Below, piece by piece: positions 17,204-59,733 of a stretch of DNA of 64,000 bases. The stretch is from Escherichia coli (GTDB lineage: Bacteria > Pseudomonadota > Gammaproteobacteria > Enterobacterales > Enterobacteriaceae), in NCBI RefSeq assembly GCF_030013595.1, contig NZ_CP122768.1. One strand, given 5' to 3'. The position numbers and the translations under genes were made by a program. Every line of letters starts with the position of its first letter. Positions within the stretch are counted from its first letter, which is position 1. The notes under the pieces are model-generated. The model ran no database searches. It was not told the DNA's origin and saw nothing but the letters and a program-made list of their open reading frames with translations.

Positions 17204-19489
17204 TCAGATCTTACATGCGCCGCTTTCGCAGCCATCGTCCTGGATTGACGGTACCAGATCGTCCTGCGCGTCTTCAGCGCCGTCACGGGTGTTCTGATAA
17301 TACAGCGTTTTGACCCCGAATTTGTAGGCGGTGAGCAGGTCTTTCAGCAGTTGCTGCATCGGCACTTTTCCTGACGGGAAGCGTGACGGATCGTAGTTGG
17401 TGTTAGCAGAGATCGACTGATCGATAAATTTCTGCATGATACCCACCAGTTGCAGGTAGCCATCGTTACCCGGCATTTCCCACAGCAGCTCATAGGCGTC
17501 GTGCAGATGCTCGTAGTCCGGCACCACCTGGCGCAGAATACCGTCTTTCGACGCTTTGATGCTGACGTAACCGCGCGGCGGTTCAATACCGTTAGTGGCG
17601 TTAGAGATCTGCGAAGAGGTCTCGGACGGCATCAGAGCAGAAAGCGTGGAGTTACGCAGGCCGTGCGTTTTGATTGACTCACGCAGTGCTTCCCAGTCGT
17701 AATGCAGCGGCTCATTAGCGATGGCATCCAGATCTTTCTTATAGGTATCGATCGGCAGGATCCCTTTCGCGTAAGTGGTTTCGTTAAACCACGGGCACGC
17801 GCCTTGCTCTTTCGCCAGCTCATTAGAGGCTTTCAGCAGGTAATACTGAATAGCTTCGAAGGTTTTATGCGTCAGGTTGTTGGCGCTGCCGTCGGAGTAG
17901 CGTTTACCGTGCTTCGCCAGGTAGTAAGCGAAGTTGATCACACCAATACCCAGCGTACGACGACCCATCGCTCCACGTTTGGCGGCCGGGATCGGGTAAT
18001 CCTGATAGTCCAGCAGCGCGTCGAGTGCGCGTACCGCCAGAATCGCCAGCTCTTCCAGTTCATCCAGGCTATTAATTGCGCCCAGGTTGAAAGCAGACAG
18101 CGTACACAGCGCGATTTCACCGTTCTCGTCGTTGACATCATTCAGCGGTTTGGTCGGCAGGGCGATTTCCAGGCACAGGTTAGACTGGCGCACTGGCGCG
18201 ATGGCCGGATCAAACGGGCTATGGGTATTGCAGTGGTCAACGTTCTGAATATAGATACGACCGGTAGACGCACGTTCCTGCATCATCAGCGAGAACAGCT
18301 CAACGGCTTTCACACGCTGCTTGCGGATGCTGTCGTCTTTCTCATATTTGGTGTACAGGCGTTCAAACTCTTCCTGATCGGCGAAGAACGCGTCGTACAG
18401 CCCCGGCACGTCGGACGGGCTGAACAGAGTGATATCTTCACCTTTCAGCAGACGGGTATACATCAGTTTGTTGATTTGTACCCCGTAGTCCATATGACGC
18501 ACGCGGTTGCCTTCAACCCCACGGTTGTTTTTCAACACCAGCAGGCTTTCCACTTCCAGATGCCACATCGGGTAGAACAGCGTAGCCGCACCGCCACGCA
18601 CACCGCCCTGAGAGCAGGATTTCACCGCTGTCTGGAAATGCTTATAGAACGGAATACAACCGGTATGGAACGCTTCGCCACCGCGAATCGGGCTACCCAG
18701 CGCACGAATACGCCCGGCATTGATGCCGATCCCGGCACGCTGGGAAACGTATTTAACAATCGCGCTGGAGGTGGCGTTAATGGAATCCAGGCTGTCACCG
18801 CACTCGATCAGTACGCAGGAGCTGAACTGACGAGTCGGGGTACGCACGCCGGACATGATTGGCGTCGGCAGCGAAATTTTAAATGTGGAAACCGCGTCGT
18901 AAAAACGCTTCACGTATTGCAGGCGCGTTTCACGCGGGTAGTTCGAGAACAGGCACGCGGCAACCAGAATATAAAGGAACTGGGCGCTTTCGTAGATTTC
19001 GCCGGTCACGCGGTTCTGTACCAGATATTTGCCTTCCAGCTGCTTAACGGCAGCATAAGAGAAGGTCATATCACGGTCGTGATCGATAAACGTGTCCATC
19101 TGCTTGAACTCTTCTTCCGTGTAGTCTTCCAGCAGATGATTATCGTATTTGCCCATCTCGACCATTTTCACCACGTGGTCGTACAGCGCAGGCGGCTCAA
19201 ACTGGCCGTAGGCTTTTTTACGCAGGTGGAAGATCGCCAGGCGCGCGGCGAGATACTGATAATCCGGCGCATCACGGGAGATCAGGTCTGCGGCAGCCTT
19301 AATAATGGTTTCGTGGATGTCAGAGGTCTTGATACCGTCATAAAACTGAATGTGGGAGCGCAGTTCGACCTGGGAAATCGAAACGTTATGCAGTCCTTCT
19401 GCCGCCCAATCCAGAACGCGATGGATTTTGTCGAGATTGATGCGCTCTGTGCTACCGTCGCGCTTTGTCACCAGCAGATTCTGATTCAT
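17204..19489 (-). CDS. nrdA: ribonucleotide reductase class Ia alpha subunit
   Basis: 761-aa ORF with N-terminal ATP-cone region; adjacent to nrdB. Confidence 0.93.
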   Translation of the reverse strand: MNQNLLVTKRDGSTERINLDKIHRVLDWAAEGLHNVSISQVELRSHIQFYDGIKTSDIHETIIKAAADLISRDAPDYQYLAARLAIFHLRKKAYGQFEPPALYDHVVKMVEMGKYDNHLLEDYTEEEFKQMDTFIDHDRDMTFSYAAVKQLEGKYLVQNRVTGEIYESAQFLYILVAACLFSNYPRETRLQYVKRFYDAVSTFKISLPTPIMSGVRTPTRQFSSCVLIECGDSLDSINATSSAIVKYVSQRAGIGINAGRIRALGSPIRGGEAFHTGCIPFYKHFQTAVKSCSQGGVRGGAATLFYPMWHLEVESLLVLKNNRGVEGNRVRHMDYGVQINKLMYTRLLKGEDITLFSPSDVPGLYDAFFADQEEFERLYTKYEKDDSIRKQRVKAVELFSLMMQERASTGRIYIQNVDHCNTHSPFDPAIAPVRQSNLCLEIALPTKPLNDVNDENGEIALCTLSAFNLGAINSLDELEELAILAVRALDALLDYQDYPIPAAKRGAMGRRTLGIGVINFAYYLAKHGKRYSDGSANNLTHKTFEAIQYYLLKASNELAKEQGACPWFNETTYAKGILPIDTYKKDLDAIANEPLHYDWEALRESIKTHGLRNSTLSALMPSETSSQISNATNGIEPPRGYVSIKASKDGILRQVVPDYEHLHDAYELLWEMPGNDGYLQLVGIMQKFIDQSISANTNYDPSRFPSGKVPMQQLLKDLLTAYKFGVKTLYYQNTRDGAEDAQDDLVPSIQDDGCESGACKI

Positions 19490-19566
19490 GTATGTCGTAC
19501 CTGTTTTTGGAATTCTTTCCGCAATAGTTTCATGCAGACTACCTGTAGTGAGGGAAGCTGCTTAGA

Positions 19567-19612
19567 ACACTATATATAGGGGGTATGTTTGGGATTCACT
19601 GCAAGATAGTGT
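19567..19612 (-). promoter_or_regulatory. candidate NrdR box pair in the nrdAB control region
   Basis: CCCCTATATATAGTGT (sense, 19567..19582) matches the recalled NrdR box consensus at 14 of 16 positions; a weaker box lies at 19597..19612, about 30 bp centre to centre. Confidence 0.35.
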
Positions 19613-19631
19613 GAAAATGGCCCTCTTGCAA
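19603..19631 (-). promoter_or_regulatory. candidate nrdAB sigma70 promoter (-35 TTGCAA, 17 bp, -10 TATCTT)
   Basis: Hexamers with 17-bp spacing sit about 110 nt upstream of the nrdA ATG. Confidence 0.35.
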
Positions 19632-19642
19632 GTGCATAACTT

Positions 19643-19651
19643 TGTGGATAA
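19643..19651 (-). promoter_or_regulatory. DnaA box TTATCCACA upstream of the nrdAB promoter
   Basis: Perfect 9-mer on the minus strand (plus strand TGTGGATAA). Confidence 0.55.
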
Positions 19652-20184
19652 CTCAGGAAGGAAAAAGTGGCTTTCGCGCACCTTAGGTCAGACAAGGTGT
19701 CCGGGAAAGTCAATGGGAAGAGAAAAATTTGTTAAAAATAACTGTTCGGCGATTTCTTGAACGGAAGAATAGGTTAGATAAATTGATATAGATGGTTTAT
19801 TAATCTTTTGGCTAATGATTGCAAAAATTGATCTAAGCACGAATCATCGCATAATCTGATGTATCAGTTCTGGTCAATATATAAGCGAATGTAAGCGATT
19901 GTTGATATCGAAATGGTTGTTTTCTCTTCGGTTATTGTTAAATGCGAAGCCATTTTGTTAATTTACCTTATATTATAAGAAAATTATTCATTACTTTAAT
20001 TCAGTTTAAATATAACTAATATCCCTTAAGGTGATTAACTTGAATTATGACGCACTGATATTATTCATGAAATAATAACAAAATAGCCATTGCACGGGGT
20101 TGAACAAATTACAAAAGAAAAATAACCCATATCGTATAATGCGATTAAATATGCCGTCTTATAGAAAATGATGGTCAGATTAAT

Positions 20185-23100
20185 ATGCGGATTATTTTTC
20201 TACGCAAGGAGTATTTATCTTTACTCCCGTCAATGATTGCGTCTCTTTTCTCTGCTAACGGTGTCGCGGCGGCCATTGATTTATGCCAGGGATATGATAT
20301 CAAAGCGAGTTGTCACGCCAGCAGGCAAAGCCTTTCAAGCTTTACGCAGGACTGGAGCATCGCCGATGGGCAATGGCTGGTTTTTTCGGATATGACTAAT
20401 AACGCCAGCGGTGGGGCCGTATTTTTGCAACAAGGAGCGGAGTTTTCTCTATCGCCAGAAAATGAAACTGGAATGACTCTGTTTGCCATTAATACTGTCT
20501 CAGGAGAATATAATAACGGCGGGGCAATATTTGCTAAAGAAAACTCAACGCTGAATCTTACTAATGTTATTTTTTCCGATAACGTTGCAGGTGGCTATGG
20601 TGGCGCAATCTATTCTTCTGGTACTAACGATACCGGTGTCGTCGATTTAAGTGTCACTAACGCCGTGTTTCGCAATAACATCGCTAATGACGGCAAAGGT
20701 GGTGCAATTTATACCATCAACAATGACGTCTATTTAAGTGAAGTTATTTTTGACAATAACCAGGCATATACATCAACAAGTTACAGCGATGGCGATGGGG
20801 GCGCAATCGATGTCACCGATAATAATAGCGATATCACGCATCCGTCAGGTTTCACAATAATAAATAACACCGCATTTACAAATAACACTGCCGAAGGTTA
20901 TGGCGGGGCAATTTATACCAATAGCGTGACGGCTCCCTATCTTATTGATATTTCGATTGATGACAGCTACAGCCAGAACGGCGGCGTGTTACTCGATGAG
21001 AACAATAGCGCGGCAGGTTATGGGGATGGTCCTTCCACTGCGGCGGGCGGCTTTATGTATCTCGGCTTAAGTGAAGTTACCTTTGATATTGCCGACGGAA
21101 AAACGCTGGTTATCGGCAATACAGAGAATGACGGAGCTGTTGACTCTATTGCTGGTACCGGGGTAATCACCAAAACAGGTTCCGGCGATCTGGTACTTAA
21201 TGCAGATAACAATGACTTTACTGGCGAGATGCAGATAGAAAACGGTGAAGTTACCCTGGGCCGCAGCAACTCCCTGATGAATGTCGGCGATACGCATTGC
21301 CAGGACGATCCGCAAGACTGCTACGGTCTGACGATAGGGAGTATTGATCAGTATCAGAATCAGGCTGAGCTAAACGTTGGCTCGACCCAACAAACTTTTG
21401 TGCACGCATTGACGGGCTTTCAGAATGGCACTTTAAATATCGATGCTGGTGGCAACGTTACTGTTAATCAGGGCAGTTTTGCTGGCACCATCGAAGGTGC
21501 TGGTCAGCTCACCATTGCGCAAAACGGCAGCTACGTGCTGGCAGGGGCTCAGTCGATGGCGCTAACTGGCGATATAGTCGTTGATGATGGTGCGGTGCTT
21601 TCACTGGAAGGCGACGCGACAGATCTCGCCGCTCTCCAGGACGATCCGCAGTCGATTGTGGTAAACGGCGGTGTGCTCGATCTCTCTGATTTCTCCACCT
21701 GGCAGAGCGGTACATCATACAACGATGGCCTTGAAGTCAGCGGCAGCGGCGGTACGGTTATCGGCAGTCAGGATGTGGTGGATCTCGCAGGTGGCGACAA
21801 TTTGCATATCGGCGGCGACGGTAAAGATGGCGTCTACGTGGTGATCGATGCGGGCGACGGGCTGGTTAGCCTGGCAAACAATAATAGTTACCTGGGCACC
21901 ACGCAAATCGCTTCCGGTACGCTGGTGGTGAGTGACAACTCGCAGCTTGGCAATACCGACGAAAACCGTCAGCTCATCTTTACTGATAGCCAACAACAAA
22001 GTGAGATGGAAATTACCGCTGACGTTGATACTCGTTCAGAGGCAGCAGGTCACGGGCGTGATATTGAAATGCGCGCCGACGGTGAAGTGGCGGTTGATGC
22101 GGGGGTAGACACGCAGTGGGGCGCACTGATGGCTGACAGCAGCGGGCAGCATCAGGATGAGGGTAGCACATTGACGAAAACGGGGGCGGGTACGCTGGAA
22201 CTGACCGCCAGCGGTACAACGCAGTCGGCGGTACGTGTCGAAGAAGGCACCCTGCAAGGTGATGTTGCGGATATCTTCCCTTATGCTTCGTCGCTGTGGG
22301 TCGGTGACGGGGCAACGTTCAAGACTGGCGCGGATCAGGATATTCAGTCAATTGATGCTACTTCCAGCGGCACTATCGACATCAGCGATGGTACGGTTTT
22401 GCGCCTGACCGGGCAGGATACTTCCGTCGCCCTTAATGCCTCACTGTTTAACGGCAATGGGACGCTGGTGAATGCCACCGATGGCGTGACGTTGACAGGC
22501 GAGCTTAATACCAACCTTGAAACTGACAGCCTGACCTATCTTGCCGACGTGACGGTTAATGGTGATCTGACCAATACGTCCGGTGCGGTTAGCCTGCAAA
22601 ATGGCGTCGCTGGCGATACGCTGACGGTAAACGGTGATTATACCGGCGGCGGTACGCTACTGCTCGATAGCGAATTAAACGGCGATGACTCGGCAAGTGA
22701 CCAACTGGTGTTGAACGGTAATACTGCTGGCAACACGACCGTGGTAATTAATCCCATTACGGGTATTGGTGAGCCGACATCTACAGGTATTAAAGTGGTT
22801 GATTTCGCAGCCGATCCAACGCAATTTCAAAACAATGCGCAGTTCAGTCTGGCGGGCAGCGGCTACGTCAATATGGGCGCGTATGACTACACGCTGGTGG
22901 AAGATAACAACGACTGGTATCTGCGATCGCAAGAAGTAACGCCACCATCGCCACCTGATCCAGACCCGACTCCCGATCCTGATCCCACGCCGGATCCTGA
23001 TCCAACACCCGACCCGGCCCCGGACCCTACGCCTGCCTACCAGCCGGTGTTGAATGCCAAAGTTGGTGGATATTTTAATAACCTGCGGGCGGCAAATCAG

Positions 23101-23943
23101 GCGTTTGTGATGGAGCGACACGATCACGCTGGTGGCGATGGTCAGACGCTGAATTTACGTGTTATCGGCGGACGTTATCATTACACAGCAGCGGGGCAAC
23201 TGGCTCAGCATGAAGACACTTCTACGGTGCAGCTTAGCGGCGACTTGTTTAGCGGGCGCTGGGGCGCGGATGGCGAGTGGATGCTTGGGGCGGTTGGTGG
23301 CTACAGTGATAACCAGGGCGACAGCCGCTCGAATATGACCGGAACTCGCGCCGATAACCAGAACCACGGTTATGCCGTTGGTCTGACCTCAAGCTGGTTT
23401 CAGCACGGTAATCAGAAGCAGGGGGCCTGGCTGGATAGCTGGCTGCAATACGCGTGGTTTAACAATGATGTTTCCGAACAAGACGATGGCACAGATCATT
23501 ACCATTCGTCGGGGATTATCGCCTCGCTGGAAGCGGGGTATCAGTGGTTACCGGGGCGTGGTGTGGTGATTGAACCGCAGGCGCAGGTGATTTATCAGGG
23601 CGTGCAGCAGGATGATTTTACCGCCGCTAACCATGCGCGCGTGTCACAATCGCAGGGTGATGATATTCAAACGCGGCTGGGTTTACACAGCGAATGGCGT
23701 ACCGCTGTTCATGTCATACCAACATTAGATCTGAATTATTATCACGATCCCCATGCGACGGAAATTGAAGAAGATGGCAGCACTATCAGTGACGATGCGG
23801 TGAAGCAACGGGGGGAAATAAAAGTGGGAGTAACGGGCAATATCAGCCAGCGAGTGTCCCTGCGCGGCAGCGTGGCGTGGCAGAAAGGGAGTGATGATTT
23901 TGCCCAGACGGCAGGGTTTTTGTCGATGACGGTGAAATGGTAG
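20185..23943 (+). CDS. yfaL: type V autotransporter adhesin
   Basis: 1252-aa ORF: signal peptide, G/N/T-rich beta-helix passenger repeats, proline-rich linker, C-terminal beta-barrel ending in W. Confidence 0.88.
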   Translation: MRIIFLRKEYLSLLPSMIASLFSANGVAAAIDLCQGYDIKASCHASRQSLSSFTQDWSIADGQWLVFSDMTNNASGGAVFLQQGAEFSLSPENETGMTLFAINTVSGEYNNGGAIFAKENSTLNLTNVIFSDNVAGGYGGAIYSSGTNDTGVVDLSVTNAVFRNNIANDGKGGAIYTINNDVYLSEVIFDNNQAYTSTSYSDGDGGAIDVTDNNSDITHPSGFTIINNTAFTNNTAEGYGGAIYTNSVTAPYLIDISIDDSYSQNGGVLLDENNSAAGYGDGPSTAAGGFMYLGLSEVTFDIADGKTLVIGNTENDGAVDSIAGTGVITKTGSGDLVLNADNNDFTGEMQIENGEVTLGRSNSLMNVGDTHCQDDPQDCYGLTIGSIDQYQNQAELNVGSTQQTFVHALTGFQNGTLNIDAGGNVTVNQGSFAGTIEGAGQLTIAQNGSYVLAGAQSMALTGDIVVDDGAVLSLEGDATDLAALQDDPQSIVVNGGVLDLSDFSTWQSGTSYNDGLEVSGSGGTVIGSQDVVDLAGGDNLHIGGDGKDGVYVVIDAGDGLVSLANNNSYLGTTQIASGTLVVSDNSQLGNTDENRQLIFTDSQQQSEMEITADVDTRSEAAGHGRDIEMRADGEVAVDAGVDTQWGALMADSSGQHQDEGSTLTKTGAGTLELTASGTTQSAVRVEEGTLQGDVADIFPYASSLWVGDGATFKTGADQDIQSIDATSSGTIDISDGTVLRLTGQDTSVALNASLFNGNGTLVNATDGVTLTGELNTNLETDSLTYLADVTVNGDLTNTSGAVSLQNGVAGDTLTVNGDYTGGGTLLLDSELNGDDSASDQLVLNGNTAGNTTVVINPITGIGEPTSTGIKVVDFAADPTQFQNNAQFSLAGSGYVNMGAYDYTLVEDNNDWYLRSQEVTPPSPPDPDPTPDPDPTPDPDPTPDPAPDPTPAYQPVLNAKVGGYFNNLRAANQAFVMERHDHAGGDGQTLNLRVIGGRYHYTAAGQLAQHEDTSTVQLSGDLFSGRWGADGEWMLGAVGGYSDNQGDSRSNMTGTRADNQNHGYAVGLTSSWFQHGNQKQGAWLDSWLQYAWFNNDVSEQDDGTDHYHSSGIIASLEAGYQWLPGRGVVIEPQAQVIYQGVQQDDFTAANHARVSQSQGDDIQTRLGLHSEWRTAVHVIPTLDLNYYHDPHATEIEEDGSTISDDAVKQRGEIKVGVTGNISQRVSLRGSVAWQKGSDDFAQTAGFLSMTVKW
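22941..23037 (+). repeat. proline-rich PDPT repeat linker in yfaL
   Basis: Encodes PPSPPDPDPTPDPDPTPDPDPTPDPAPDPTP; about three 18-nt units. Confidence 0.7.
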
Positions 23944-27648: not shown

Positions 27649-34495
<6,847 letters not shown>

Positions 34496-59244: not shown

Positions 59245-59733
59245 TTAGCGAACTACCGCGTTGTCAATTTTCTCTTCCGCCTTCCAGATGCGGTATTTCA
59301 CATCCACATTGTCTGGCGTATACACCACGATCGGCAGCTTGCTGTTGTAACGCAGCATTCCAGCATCGCCCAGATACGCGGTGACAAATTTCTTCTCTTT
59401 TTTGCCATCCGGGCAGGCCATCATCGTGGAAACCGGGGAACTGACTTTATCAAAGACATAATAATCATAGCCCCAGCCTTCCAGCGTTTTGCTTTCCAGC
59501 TTCCCGCCGAGACGATGCAAATTGCAATCGACTTCCAGCGTCTGACCGATTAACAGTTCTACTTTCAGGGTAGATTCATCTTTTTGCGGGGTTAACTGAA
59601 TCACCTGACGCTTCATGCCTTTTTCAGCTTGTGGATAAGGCGCGATTTTTTCCAGTGGCTGGACACTCTCTGCCGCCCAGGCGGAAGTGGTGGCGAAAGC
59701 GGCAAACAATACTGCAGGTAGAATGGTCTTCAT
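59245..59733 (-). CDS. eco: ecotin, periplasmic serine protease inhibitor
   Basis: 162-aa ORF with signal peptide [20 protein letters not shown]. Confidence 0.92.

Follow-up and report, generated by a model that had tools for sequence, protein, structure and literature searches.

Organization of the nrdA-yfaL intergenic region

The genes nrdA and yfaL are transcribed divergently and, according to the ORF calls (nrdA minus, yfaL plus), are separated by a spacer of 695 bp (19490..20184) within the window, the 64-kb stretch of Escherichia coli DNA that was analysed. The names nrdA, ypaB and yfaL follow the RefSeq annotation at this place in nearly identical E. coli genomes. Among 5426 complete genomes, 5415 contained 80% or more of the query, and this control region is an ordinary one that is already known in E. 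coli.

17204..19489, minus strand: nrdA, class Ia ribonucleotide reductase alpha subunit (ORF; RefSeq annotation of matching E. coli genomes)
20185..23943, plus strand: yfaL (ehaC), AIDA-I family autotransporter adhesin (ORF; RefSeq annotation)
19617..19760, plus strand: annotated ORF ypaB, 47 aa, antisense across the nrdA promoter (RefSeq annotation)

The GC content of the spacer was 34.0% as compared to 51.7% for the window, confirming the AT-rich divergent spacer of the original prediction, the coordinates of which were all correct on checking. Positions 19490-19700 contained 43.6% GC and positions 19701-20184 only 29.8%. Sequence features, their statistics, their conservation and a junction within the spacer were directly observed and are described in the following sections.

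The nrdA promoter and its DnaA boxes

The nrdA-proximal part carries a candidate promoter and two DnaA boxes.

19626..19631, minus strand: -35 hexamer TTGCAA (from sequence), 17-bp spacer to the -10
19603..19608, minus strand: -10 hexamer TATCTT (from sequence), last base 114 nt before the nrdA ATG
19490..19599, minus strand: putative nrdA leader (5' UTR), approx. 107-110 nt; the -10 ends at 19603 and the literature start site lies within NrdR box 0
19643..19651, minus strand: perfect DnaA box TTATCCACA, exact match to the 9-mer consensus TTATNCACA
19631..19639, minus strand: second DnaA box TTATGCACT, weaker, differing from TTATCCACA at two positions and adjoining the -35

TTGCAA-17-TATCTT agrees with the consensus at 8 of 12 positions, which is under the 9/12 threshold of our promoter scan and by itself not above chance. 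The hexamers are, however, conserved among the 33 species sharing the type-1 layout defined below: TATCTT is invariant and at a fixed distance from NrdR box 1 in 32 of them, and TTGCAA is exact in 24 and differs at one position in most others. Together, the 8/12 match and this conservation bear out the predicted promoter with 17-bp spacing about 110 nt upstream of the nrdA ATG. The nrdA leader presumably comprises about 110 nt, in line with start mapping in K-12; a putative start at 19599 is only 4 nt past TATCTT. Since folding of the leader RNA was no better than that of shuffled sequences (z = -0.22), the idea of a structured leader was dropped.

Perfect DnaA boxes were found three times in the window, where 0.5 are expected, and the other two are located inside long ORFs. 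The exact match at 19643..19651, already noticed in the original prediction, has a counterpart in the same orientation in 75 of the 79 Enterobacterales species sampled (among the matches listed). Its position relative to NrdR box 1 is fixed within each layout, the distance being 69 bp in Escherichia and Pseudocitrobacter and 77-79 bp in the other type-1 species. The second box is restricted to Escherichia and Pseudocitrobacter, and TTGTTCACT is present at the same place in other type-1 species.

Regulation of the nrdAB promoter by DnaA boxes has been reviewed, and two nucleotide-independent DnaA boxes plus one ATP-DnaA box are counted in the literature. Two tandem boxes directly upstream of the -35 may operate at nrdA as described there, with DnaA-ADP or low DnaA-ATP aiding RNA polymerase and high DnaA-ATP repressing transcription. 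Such a switch would couple dNTP synthesis to replication initiation. The E. coli dnaA promoter region is similar in that it contains ATP/ADP-dependent DnaA boxes and shares the regulators Fis and IciA with nrdAB, as reviewed. It differs in that it controls another gene, is purely autorepressed by DnaA and is devoid of an NrdR operator.

Three NrdR boxes upstream of nrdA

Scoring of the key positions C4, A6, A8, T9, T11 and G13 revealed three NrdR boxes.

19567..19582, minus strand: NrdR box 1 CCCCTATATATAGTGT, the anchor box, 6/6 key positions
19536..19551, minus strand: NrdR box 2 TCACTACAGGTAGTCT, 5/6 key positions (G at position 9), 15-bp linker to box 1
19599..19614, minus strand: NrdR box 0 TCACACTATCTTGCAG, the older predicted partner, 5/6 key positions (C not A at position 6), 16-bp linker to box 1, overlapping the -10

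Boxes 1+2 and boxes 0+1 were the only box pairs in the 64-kb window (four hits, representing both pairs on both strands). Markov simulations yielded a mean of 0.56 hits and reached four in 3 of 100 runs. Both pairs have the composition of an NrdR operator, two 16-bp partly palindromic boxes with 15-16 bp between them, and the operator is located 46-93 nt upstream of the nrdA ATG in the ribonucleotide reductase control region. Box 1 scored 6/6 in 32 of 33 type-1 species and in all 42 type-2 species. In K-12 it is experimentally essential, as its mutation abolishes NrdR binding. The NrdR box predicted at 19567..19582 is therefore both a full match and a published site. A weaker partner about 30 bp away, the second element of that prediction, does exist, but its identity was ambiguous because 5/6 partners occur on both sides of box 1; the functional one in K-12 is box 2.

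An operator consisting of box 0 and box 1 would imply repression by direct promoter occlusion, as box 0 spans the -10 and the nrdA start site in the literature, and would render box 2 irrelevant. The 5/6 score and 16-bp linker of box 0 are compatible with such an arrangement, and the score is kept in 32 of 33 type-1 species. Moreover, an equivalent upstream partner box without a downstream box is conserved in 40 of 42 type-2 species, and mutation of either box increased nrdAB expression in Salmonella according to the literature. The conservation of box 0 in type-1 species is, however, confounded with that of the invariant -10 (CACTATCTTG), and NrdR binding was unaffected by mutation of box 0 in earlier gel shifts. 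Furthermore, work published in 2025 identified downstream box 2, not upstream box 0, as the functional partner of box 1: E. coli NrdR bound K-12 boxes 1+2 with a Kd of 113 nM (ATP-dATP) in vitro as compared to >6000 nM for boxes 0+1. A C6A change in box 0 conferred tenfold higher NrdR affinity. On balance, we regard the pairing of boxes 0 and 1 as improbable. By analogy to K-12, we infer that the NrdR operator of this strain is formed by box 1 and box 2, 15 bp apart, and would lie in the transcribed leader.

Among type-1 species a box 2 scoring 5/6 in the same register was confined to Escherichia, Pseudocitrobacter and Rouxiella; most other species exhibit an ACACTA-like first half near the box 2 position. 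The E. coli nrdHIEF and nrdDG operators likewise consist of two 16-bp boxes with a 15-bp linker and C4 and G13 in both boxes, and NrdR binds them with similar affinity (96-187 nM). At nrdAB, in contrast, the operator follows the start site and is part of the leader, the centre of box 2 reads AG and not AT, and there is a third box, the decoy-like box 0, over the -10.

Far-upstream elements of the nrdA control region

Upstream of the DnaA boxes, an inverted repeat is followed by a conserved block.

19671..19709, minus strand: imperfect inverted repeat CTTTCCCGGACACCTT...AAGGTGCGCGAAAG (DNA fold -7.2 kcal/mol, z = -2.07)
19710..19763, minus strand: conserved far-upstream block, 96-99% identical among E. 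coli lineages
19708..19713, minus strand: TTGACT in the far-upstream block
19723..19741, minus strand: AT-rich tract TTATTTTTAACAAATTTTT in the far-upstream block
minus strand: CGTTCAAGAAATC, a further part of the far-upstream block

The block can be aligned to E. albertii and Pseudocitrobacter and is visibly homologous in both layouts. The repeat at 19671..19709 is probably the published '45 bp inverted repeat' required for cell-cycle control. Positions 19710..19763 presumably contain the Fis, IciA and AT-rich cis elements described in the literature. The published Fis, IciA and cell-cycle elements would then all belong to the stretch formed by this repeat and the AT-rich block.

In a review, IciA, Fis and DnaA are listed as activators and H-NS and NrdR as repressors of nrdAB. 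A degenerate consensus scan for Fis sites gave 41 matches against 45.7 expected and was not above chance; within the spacer it matched only at 19819 and 19872, both in the yfaL half. The H-NS motif was matched seven times in the window, again not above the chance expectation of 4.7. Both scans thus neither support nor refute binding. The original prediction had suggested motif scans for four proteins, and the outcome was divided: matches for DnaA and NrdR stand out, whereas simple consensus scans for H-NS and Fis remain at chance level. Its description of the spacer did not include the second DnaA box, the upstream inverted repeat, the AT-rich block, the ypaB annotation or the composite origin of the spacer.

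ypaB and other candidate genes in the spacer

The ypaB ORF covers much of the region described above, and it is conceivable that 19617-19760 is conserved as a real small protein gene and not as regulatory DNA of nrdA. It is annotated in most E. coli RefSeq genomes, and the reading frame is intact in the window and in K-12, L007 and Pseudocitrobacter. However, all substitutions within E. coli fall on codon positions 1 and 2, so that the third-position bias of a coding sequence is lacking; E. albertii contains an in-frame stop, and the ATG is absent from PBP8-class E. coli. An NCBIfam search with ypaB gave no match. The ORF runs across the DnaA boxes, the -35 hexamer and the elements further upstream, all of which are conserved far beyond its taxonomic range. 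Coding function was rejected on these grounds. Judged by its substitution pattern, ypaB is probably not a real gene, and we consider it very unlikely that a small protein accounts for the conservation of this segment. Other small ORFs in the spacer encode only 20-50 aa and none was supported.

For intergenic DNA of E. coli the spacer is long, and 115-140 bp of it are shared with P1-family phages, which might point to a concealed small RNA or the remnant of a mobile element. The shared phage segment is the promoter itself, already annotated as 'nrdA-like promoter'. An Rfam scan of 19000-20700 at E <= 1 gave no match, and no terminator-like sites appeared in the scan for them. The repeat search detected no direct repeats and a single 13-nt inverted pair, which spans the yfaL start and is probably due to chance. 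This explanation is hardly credible, even less so than a functional ypaB.

The yfaL-proximal half is a putative H-NS-bound promoter island

Conservation falls sharply at approx. 19763. Beyond this junction, identity to the window is 94% in K-12, 84% in PBP8 and about 50% in L007, E. albertii and Pseudocitrobacter.

19764..20184, plus strand: yfaL-linked AT-rich region, about 30% GC, a 'promoter island' (composition; promoter-like sites; conservation break; literature)
19775..19784, plus strand: TAGATAAATT, one mismatch from the H-NS high-affinity motif TCGATAAATT (motif scan)
19828..19855, plus strand: TTGATC-16-CATAAT, predicted yfaL promoter (promoter scan; identical hexamers in PMC3946193)
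20135..20140, plus strand: perfect TATAAT, candidate proximal yfaL -10 (from sequence), 45 nt before the ATG, without a good -35

A/T tracts of at least four bases occur at 2.27 per 100 bp in this half as compared to 0.93 window-wide. This agrees with the A/T tracts that the original prediction had placed in the yfaL-proximal part. Six promoter-like sites fall into 19801-20300, the densest 500 bp of the window. Any other 500-bp stretch contains two at most, and the window-wide density is 0.7 per kb. Shuffled sequences of the same composition contained 3.9 +/- 2.3 sites, which indicates that the excess is a by-product of AT richness. TATAAT at 20135..20140 is kept in K-12 and reads CATAAT in PBP8.

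The same spacer has been studied in K-12. The yfaL/ypaB region is one of 78 'promoter islands', bound by H-NS in all ChIP studies compared and transcriptionally poor, and it binds RNA polymerase in vitro. Genomic SELEX flagged the yfaL-nrdA spacer for H-NS sites, and one such study lists the same TTGATC/CATAAT hexamers for yfaL (PMC3946193). A biofilm phenotype of YfaL was obtained with a constitutive promoter inserted before the gene. The suggestion that yfaL is probably silent in the laboratory is supported by this literature, that is, by H-NS binding, poor transcription and the use of forced expression to obtain a phenotype. The region studied here resembles promoter island 2342143_534 yfaL/ypaB (Panyukov and Ozoline 2013) as it is the same AT-rich region beside a patchily distributed gene and has the densest cluster of promoter-like sites of the window. 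It differs in that the data on occupancy by H-NS and RNA polymerase come from K-12, and in that the site density in our simple scan is no greater than composition predicts.

Reviews also list H-NS as a repressor of nrdAB itself, an aspect absent from the original prediction, which dealt with silencing of yfaL only.

Composite origin of the spacer

Among the matches listed, five of the sampled species carry yfaL beside nrdA, and in about 68 species ubiG directly adjoins nrdA. Two E. coli lineages share only 74% identity in the passenger-domain half of YfaL. Judged from the species distribution, yfaL is an accessory gene that was inserted between its neighbours ubiG and nrdA, and the 30%-GC DNA of the yfaL half would have arrived with it.

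The yfaL half might instead be neutral, fast-evolving filler left by this insertion, with a weak proximal promoter driving yfaL. Its hypervariability across lineages, from 84% identity down to unalignable, fits such an origin, and composition accounts for both the motif and the promoter-density signals. Evidence against it comes from K-12, where H-NS is reported to occupy the region in the ChIP studies compared and RNA polymerase to bind it in vitro, and from a spacer of similar length (approx. 660-705 bp) that accompanies yfaL in five lineages. We give this explanation little weight, slightly less than the pairing of NrdR boxes 0 and 1.

In our preferred reading, to which we assign a probability of roughly 0.93, the spacer consists of two regulatory regions placed end to end, the nrdAB control region and the H-NS-type yfaL half. 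Protein binding and regulatory effects in this strain would correspond to those found in K-12. A weak σ70 promoter (TTGCAA-17-TATCTT) would give rise to the nrdA leader of about 110 nt. An H-NS-coated promoter island would keep yfaL essentially silent in laboratory culture, and the reported repression of nrdAB by H-NS could plausibly proceed from the yfaL half.

The corresponding K-12 region has the same locus and element order, with 272 of 276 bases (98.6%) identical over 19490-19765, including both DnaA boxes, the -35, the -10, box 0 and box 1. Box 2 starts with TC here and with GT in K-12 (GTAC at positions 1-4), a difference at non-key positions, and one substitution at 19621 in the -35/-10 spacer also alters codon 2 of ypaB. 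The yfaL half is 94.3% identical. The analysis has thus re-identified one of the best-characterised E. coli promoters together with a catalogued H-NS-bound region and adds little that is new. The locus can serve as a positive control, in which a DnaA box, an NrdR box and a promoter were placed to the base from the letters alone.

Two layouts of the nrdA control core in Enterobacterales

Upstream control sequences were compared in the 80 best matches. The comparison covered 79 Enterobacterales species for the DnaA box and 33 type-1 and 42 type-2 species for the NrdR boxes; the Salmonella promoter sequence was taken from a chromosome fragment filed as a plasmid.

In the type-1 layout, the DnaA box precedes the -35, and its distance to NrdR box 1, which lies downstream, is 69-79 bp. 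It is present in Escherichia, Pseudocitrobacter, Yersiniaceae, Hafniaceae, Budviciaceae, Xenorhabdus and most Pectobacteriaceae. In the type-2 layout of Salmonella, Citrobacter, Enterobacter, Raoultella, Kluyvera, Pantoea, Erwinia and others, the DnaA box directly adjoins box 1 at its 3' end, a second box in inverted orientation follows 30 bp on, and the NrdR partner is located upstream.

We tentatively propose, as a possibility that is rather doubtful at present, that the nrdA core (approx. -215 to -1) exists in two unalignable layouts that disagree with the nrdA tree and are followed, host by host, by the copies on P1-like phage-plasmids. Escherichia is nested among type-2 genera, so that its core was either kept despite widespread replacement or re-acquired laterally. 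The 69-bp spacing, the second DnaA box and box 2 occur together only in the three taxa with a closely related adjoining yfaL, and the Escherichia core could have been re-acquired laterally together with this gene. The discordance with the nrdA tree and the host-matching phage-plasmid copies may be new.

If the proposal is true, sister genera would differ in the side of the start site from which DnaA acts. The comparison further suggests that the box 1 + box 2 operator of E. coli is a lineage-specific arrangement, and that most relatives use an upstream NrdR partner box and DnaA boxes in the leader. The layouts would represent a natural experiment in which the same two regulators, NrdR and DnaA, act from different positions.

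The nrdA-like promoter of phage P1

Matches to positions 19613-19727 of the window were obtained in some E. coli plasmids. These matches were rejected as a new finding because they correspond to the P1 'nrdA-like promoter', annotated since M95666. This element (GenBank M95666; P1 and P7 annotation) comprises 115-140 bp that are 83-95% identical to 19603/19613..19727/19742. It shares the AT-rich tract, both DnaA boxes and the -35 with the chromosomal region, as well as the -10 in some phages, and differs by the absence of NrdR box 1. The P1 copy runs antisense into upfN, upfM and pmgV and adjoins hot and lxr. Near lxr, the P1-like phage-plasmids from E. coli and those from Citrobacter have a copy in the layout of their respective host.

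Composition and conservation of the nrdA-yfaL spacer

The spacer is bounded by two open reading frames:

17204..19489, minus strand, nrdA (ORF call)
20185..23943, plus strand, yfaL (ORF call)

Because of these ORF ends, the spacer extends from 19490 to 20184, is exactly 695 bp long and separates divergent genes, precisely as the original prediction had it. The AT richness claimed for it was likewise found, with a GC content of 34.0% compared with 51.7% for the window. The composition is not uniform: GC amounts to 43.6% in 19490-19700 and 29.8% in 19701-20184, where the density of A/T tracts is 2.4 times that of the window overall. A search of the spacer for Rfam families, terminators and repeats returned no family, no terminator and no meaningful repeat. 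The 1.1 kb around the spacer is 99.9% identical to E. coli CFSAN018748, the nearest of the complete genomes, and 96.3% identical to K-12 MG1655. At least 80% of this query was present in 5415 of 5426 complete E. coli genomes, where the annotation reads nrdA, ypaB and yfaL; only a handful of the 5426 lack most of it.

Alignment of E. coli lineages and relatives revealed a sharp conservation break at about position 19763. Towards nrdA, the window is 98.6% identical to K-12, 97.0% to the PBP8 class of E. coli, 96.4% to the GTDB representative E. coli (L007), 89.9% to E. albertii and 82.4% to Pseudocitrobacter. Towards yfaL, the identity is 94.3% for K-12 and 84.4% for PBP8 and then falls to about 50%, which is unalignable. 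Given this break, the spacer is composed of a nrdA control region proper of about 275 bp and about 420 bp of fast-evolving DNA travelling with yfaL, in agreement with the earlier distinction of a yfaL-proximal part of 400 bp. The original observation was confirmed to the base and its interpretation is supported with minor refinements. The nrdA-yfaL control region itself is an already known feature, and the comparative side results are leads.

Scanning species-representative genomes with the NrdA N-terminus yielded 80 Enterobacterales loci, 79 of them with usable upstream sequence. In approximately 68 species the gene immediately upstream of nrdA is ubiG, on the same strand and 320-610 bp away. 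An intervening yfaL was restricted to E. coli, E. albertii, a Pseudocitrobacter MAG, Enterobacteriaceae strain RIT691 and Rahnella bonaserana. Strongly divergent yfaL alleles exist within E. coli: YfaL of L007 is only 74% identical over the first ~600 aa (window 20185-22000), and the 420 bp upstream of its gene (19764-20184) are unalignable to the window. In CFSAN018748 (L087 3136-3759), two partial ribonucleotide reductase pseudogene fragments lie between nrdB and nrdA, representing either a strain-specific duplication or an assembly artefact; the window does not contain them, and its nrdB ends 94 bp from nrdA.

DnaA boxes and promoter of nrdA

The nrdA side carries the following elements:

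19643..19651, nrdA strand (minus), perfect DnaA box TTATCCACA (motif match)
19631..19639, nrdA strand (minus), second DnaA box TTATGCACT, read from the sequence and touching the -35 hexamer
19626..19631 and 19603..19608, minus strand, nrdA promoter with -35 TTGCAA, a 17-bp spacer and -10 TATCTT
19671..19709, imperfect inverted repeat (z = -2.07)
19599..19614, nrdA strand, NrdR box 0
19567..19582, minus strand, NrdR box 1 CCCCTATATATAGTGT (motif match)
19536..19551, minus strand, NrdR box 2, reading TCACTACAGGTAGTCT

The predicted perfect DnaA box was present, and 75 of 79 Enterobacterales species have one on the nrdA strand. The window contains three perfect boxes (0.5 expected), this being the sole intergenic one; the remaining two (32926-32934 and 59630-59638) lie inside a 1539-aa alpha-2-macroglobulin family gene and eco. 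The candidate promoter with 17-bp spacing upstream of nrdA was also recovered. It matches the consensus at 8 of 12 positions, which is why it was absent from the output of a generic promoter scan. Among the 33 species sharing the layout of Escherichia (type 1), the -10 hexamer is invariant in 32 and the -35 hexamer exact in 24. As evidence for the promoter assignment, this phylogenetic footprint outweighs the hexamer match. A fold test of the nrdA leader RNA displayed no unusual structure, and a scan with the Fis consensus was uninformative. PBP8-class strains (~90% identity) carry a 13-bp deletion (GGAATTCTTTCCG) in the leader at window 19509-19521, about 20-32 nt before the nrdA ATG. A published 45-bp inverted repeat is reportedly needed for cell-cycle control, and the repeat at 19671..19709 probably corresponds to it.

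The DnaA boxes, the promoter and the NrdR boxes are all published for K-12, which is identical to the window at 272 of 276 bases over 19490-19765. DnaA controls K-12 nrdAB through three boxes, two of them nucleotide-independent and one specific for ATP-DnaA; the operon is activated by low DnaA-ATP or by DnaA-ADP and repressed by high DnaA-ATP, and Fis and IciA are regulators common to the nrdAB and dnaA promoters (review). For the class Ia enzyme, a review of ribonucleotide reductases names three activators (IciA, Fis and DnaA) and two repressors (H-NS and NrdR).

The NrdR operator

The NrdR element was confirmed: box 1 exhibits all six key positions (C4, A6, A8, T9, T11, G13), and does so in 32 of 33 type-1 species and in all 42 species of the second layout (type 2). 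The whole window was scanned for box pairs with at least 5/6 key positions in each box, 6/6 in one of them and a linker of 15-16 bp. Pairs occurred at this locus only, giving four matches compared with a mean of 0.56 in composition-matched simulations (each pair counted on both strands). They represent two overlapping pairs that share box 1, its partner being box 0 in one and box 2 in the other. The weaker partner predicted about 30 bp away is therefore correct but ambiguous, since box 1 has partners on both sides.

A 2025 study of E. coli NrdR changes the older picture of this operator. The originally predicted pair of box 0, which lies over the -10 region, and box 1 was bound with a Kd >6000 nM, whereas box 1 together with the newly recognised downstream box 2 gave a Kd of 113 nM, comparable to nrdHIEF and nrdDG. 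Binding required dATP plus ATP or ADP. A 2026 preprint put the weakness of box 0 down to C at position 6. By analogy, the functional partner of box 1 in the window is predicted to be box 2. The K-12 box starts with GTAC, and its differences from the window fall at non-key positions. Positions 1-2 (window 19550-19551) are polymorphic, with TC in the window, PBP8, E. albertii and Pseudocitrobacter, GT in K-12 and GC in L007, while the six key positions are unchanged.

Two layouts of the nrdA control core

Comparison of window 19490-19700 with the corresponding regions of L007-L086 and L090, a Salmonella Infantis record, revealed two layouts among Enterobacterales that could not be aligned with each other. 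In type 1 (33 species, including Escherichia, Pseudocitrobacter, Serratia, Yersinia, Rahnella, Hafnia, Edwardsiella, Budvicia, Xenorhabdus, Dickeya and Brenneria) the DnaA box lies ahead of the -35 hexamer, 77-79 bp upstream of box 1, the distance in Escherichia and Pseudocitrobacter being 69 bp. In type 2 (42 species, including Citrobacter, Enterobacter, Raoultella, Kluyvera, Cedecea, Kosakonia, Pantoea and Erwinia, plus Salmonella from L090) it directly adjoins the 3′ end of box 1, with an inverted second box 30 bp further. Type-2 cores also have a conserved NrdR partner box upstream, preceded by a near-consensus TAGAAT, and lack a downstream box 2.

From its first 150 nt onwards, the nrdA coding sequence agrees with the species tree: Citrobacter is 93% identical to the window over those 150 nt and 88% overall, and Serratia 75% and 84%. 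By blastn, the E. coli core matched Serratia, Rahnella, Dickeya and Brenneria at 69-76% and no type-2 species. As the layouts conflict with the coding-sequence tree, one of the two lineages appears to have had its control core replaced. The 69-bp spacing, the second DnaA box and a full box 2 are confined to the three taxa in which a closely related yfaL is also present. A non-exhaustive literature search found no discussion of this discordance.

The yfaL-proximal half

The A/T tracts of this half had been taken as typical of H-NS binding, and published K-12 data show H-NS occupancy here. Among the 78 promoter islands that Panyukov and Ozoline list for K-12 is one of 534 bp in the yfaL-ypaB interval, which was scored as H-NS-bound in all ChIP studies compared; such islands are described as binding RNA polymerase and yielding little full-length RNA. 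The yfaL-ypaB gap in K-12 is 424 bp, and the island must therefore span nearly the whole of window 19761-20184. Shimada et al. reported H-NS sites in the yfaL-nrdA spacer and predicted a yfaL promoter, which our promoter scan found independently:

19828..19855, predicted yfaL promoter TTGATC-16-CATAAT
19775..19784, near-perfect H-NS motif TAGATAAATT

Six promoter-like sites make 19801-20300 the densest 500 bp of the window (0.7 per kb overall, at most two elsewhere). Since shuffles of the same composition are expected to contain 3.9 ± 2.3, the island property is a consequence of AT richness. The H-NS motif match is not statistically remarkable. The Ghigo laboratory observed a YfaL biofilm phenotype after insertion of a constitutive promoter in front of yfaL, which fits silence of the native gene without proving it. 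The predicted silencing of yfaL is supported by the published K-12 data, and by nothing computed here, and would probably extend to this strain by analogy.

The annotated ypaB frame

19617..19760, plus strand, ypaB, 47 codons, antisense over the DnaA boxes and upstream elements

Several observations argue against ypaB as a coding gene. Its substitutions are not biased towards the third codon position, the frame is interrupted by a stop in E. albertii, the ATG is missing in PBP8-class strains and no NCBIfam model matched. From these sequence features, ypaB is probably an annotation artefact over the nrdA promoter, its conservation being due to the nrdA elements on the opposite strand.

Copies on phage-plasmids and plasmids

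A stretch of 115-140 bp with 83-95% identity to window 19603/19613..19727/19742 is present in P1, P7 and related phage-plasmids (P1, L004 1560-1615; P7, L006 1501-1629; L002 4001-4115), as well as in several hundred plasmids of E. coli, Salmonella and Shigella. The phage-plasmid copies include the AT-rich tract, the two DnaA boxes and the -35 hexamer, some of them also the -10 hexamer, and lack NrdR box 1. The phage copy is annotated as 'nrdA-like promoter' with a dnaA box (M95666, P1 genome record); in P1 it is oriented antisense into upfN, upfM and pmgV.

Citrobacter freundii plasmids (85-99 kb, predicted non-mobilizable) contain a Citrobacter-type nrdA control region with 91-92% identity, including both NrdR boxes and the first DnaA box (L091 2501-2681, NZ_CP056338.1; also hits H56 and H57). 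In one plasmid, L091, a gene for a P1 Lxr homologue (67% aa identity) follows 570 bp downstream of the copy, and the two are oriented alike. These copies, which may be new, parallel the E. coli-type copy in P1/P7, each being host-matched; this suggests repeated capture or ongoing exchange with the chromosome. Several records in the plasmid collection, among them L090 (CP148755.1), H16 (NZ_CP141089.1) and H53 (CP125156.1), are misfiled chromosomes or fragments of chromosomes; examples are the 500-kb Salmonella Infantis record with ubiG-nrdA, an E. coli record of 4.9 Mb and a K. pneumoniae record of 5.4 Mb.
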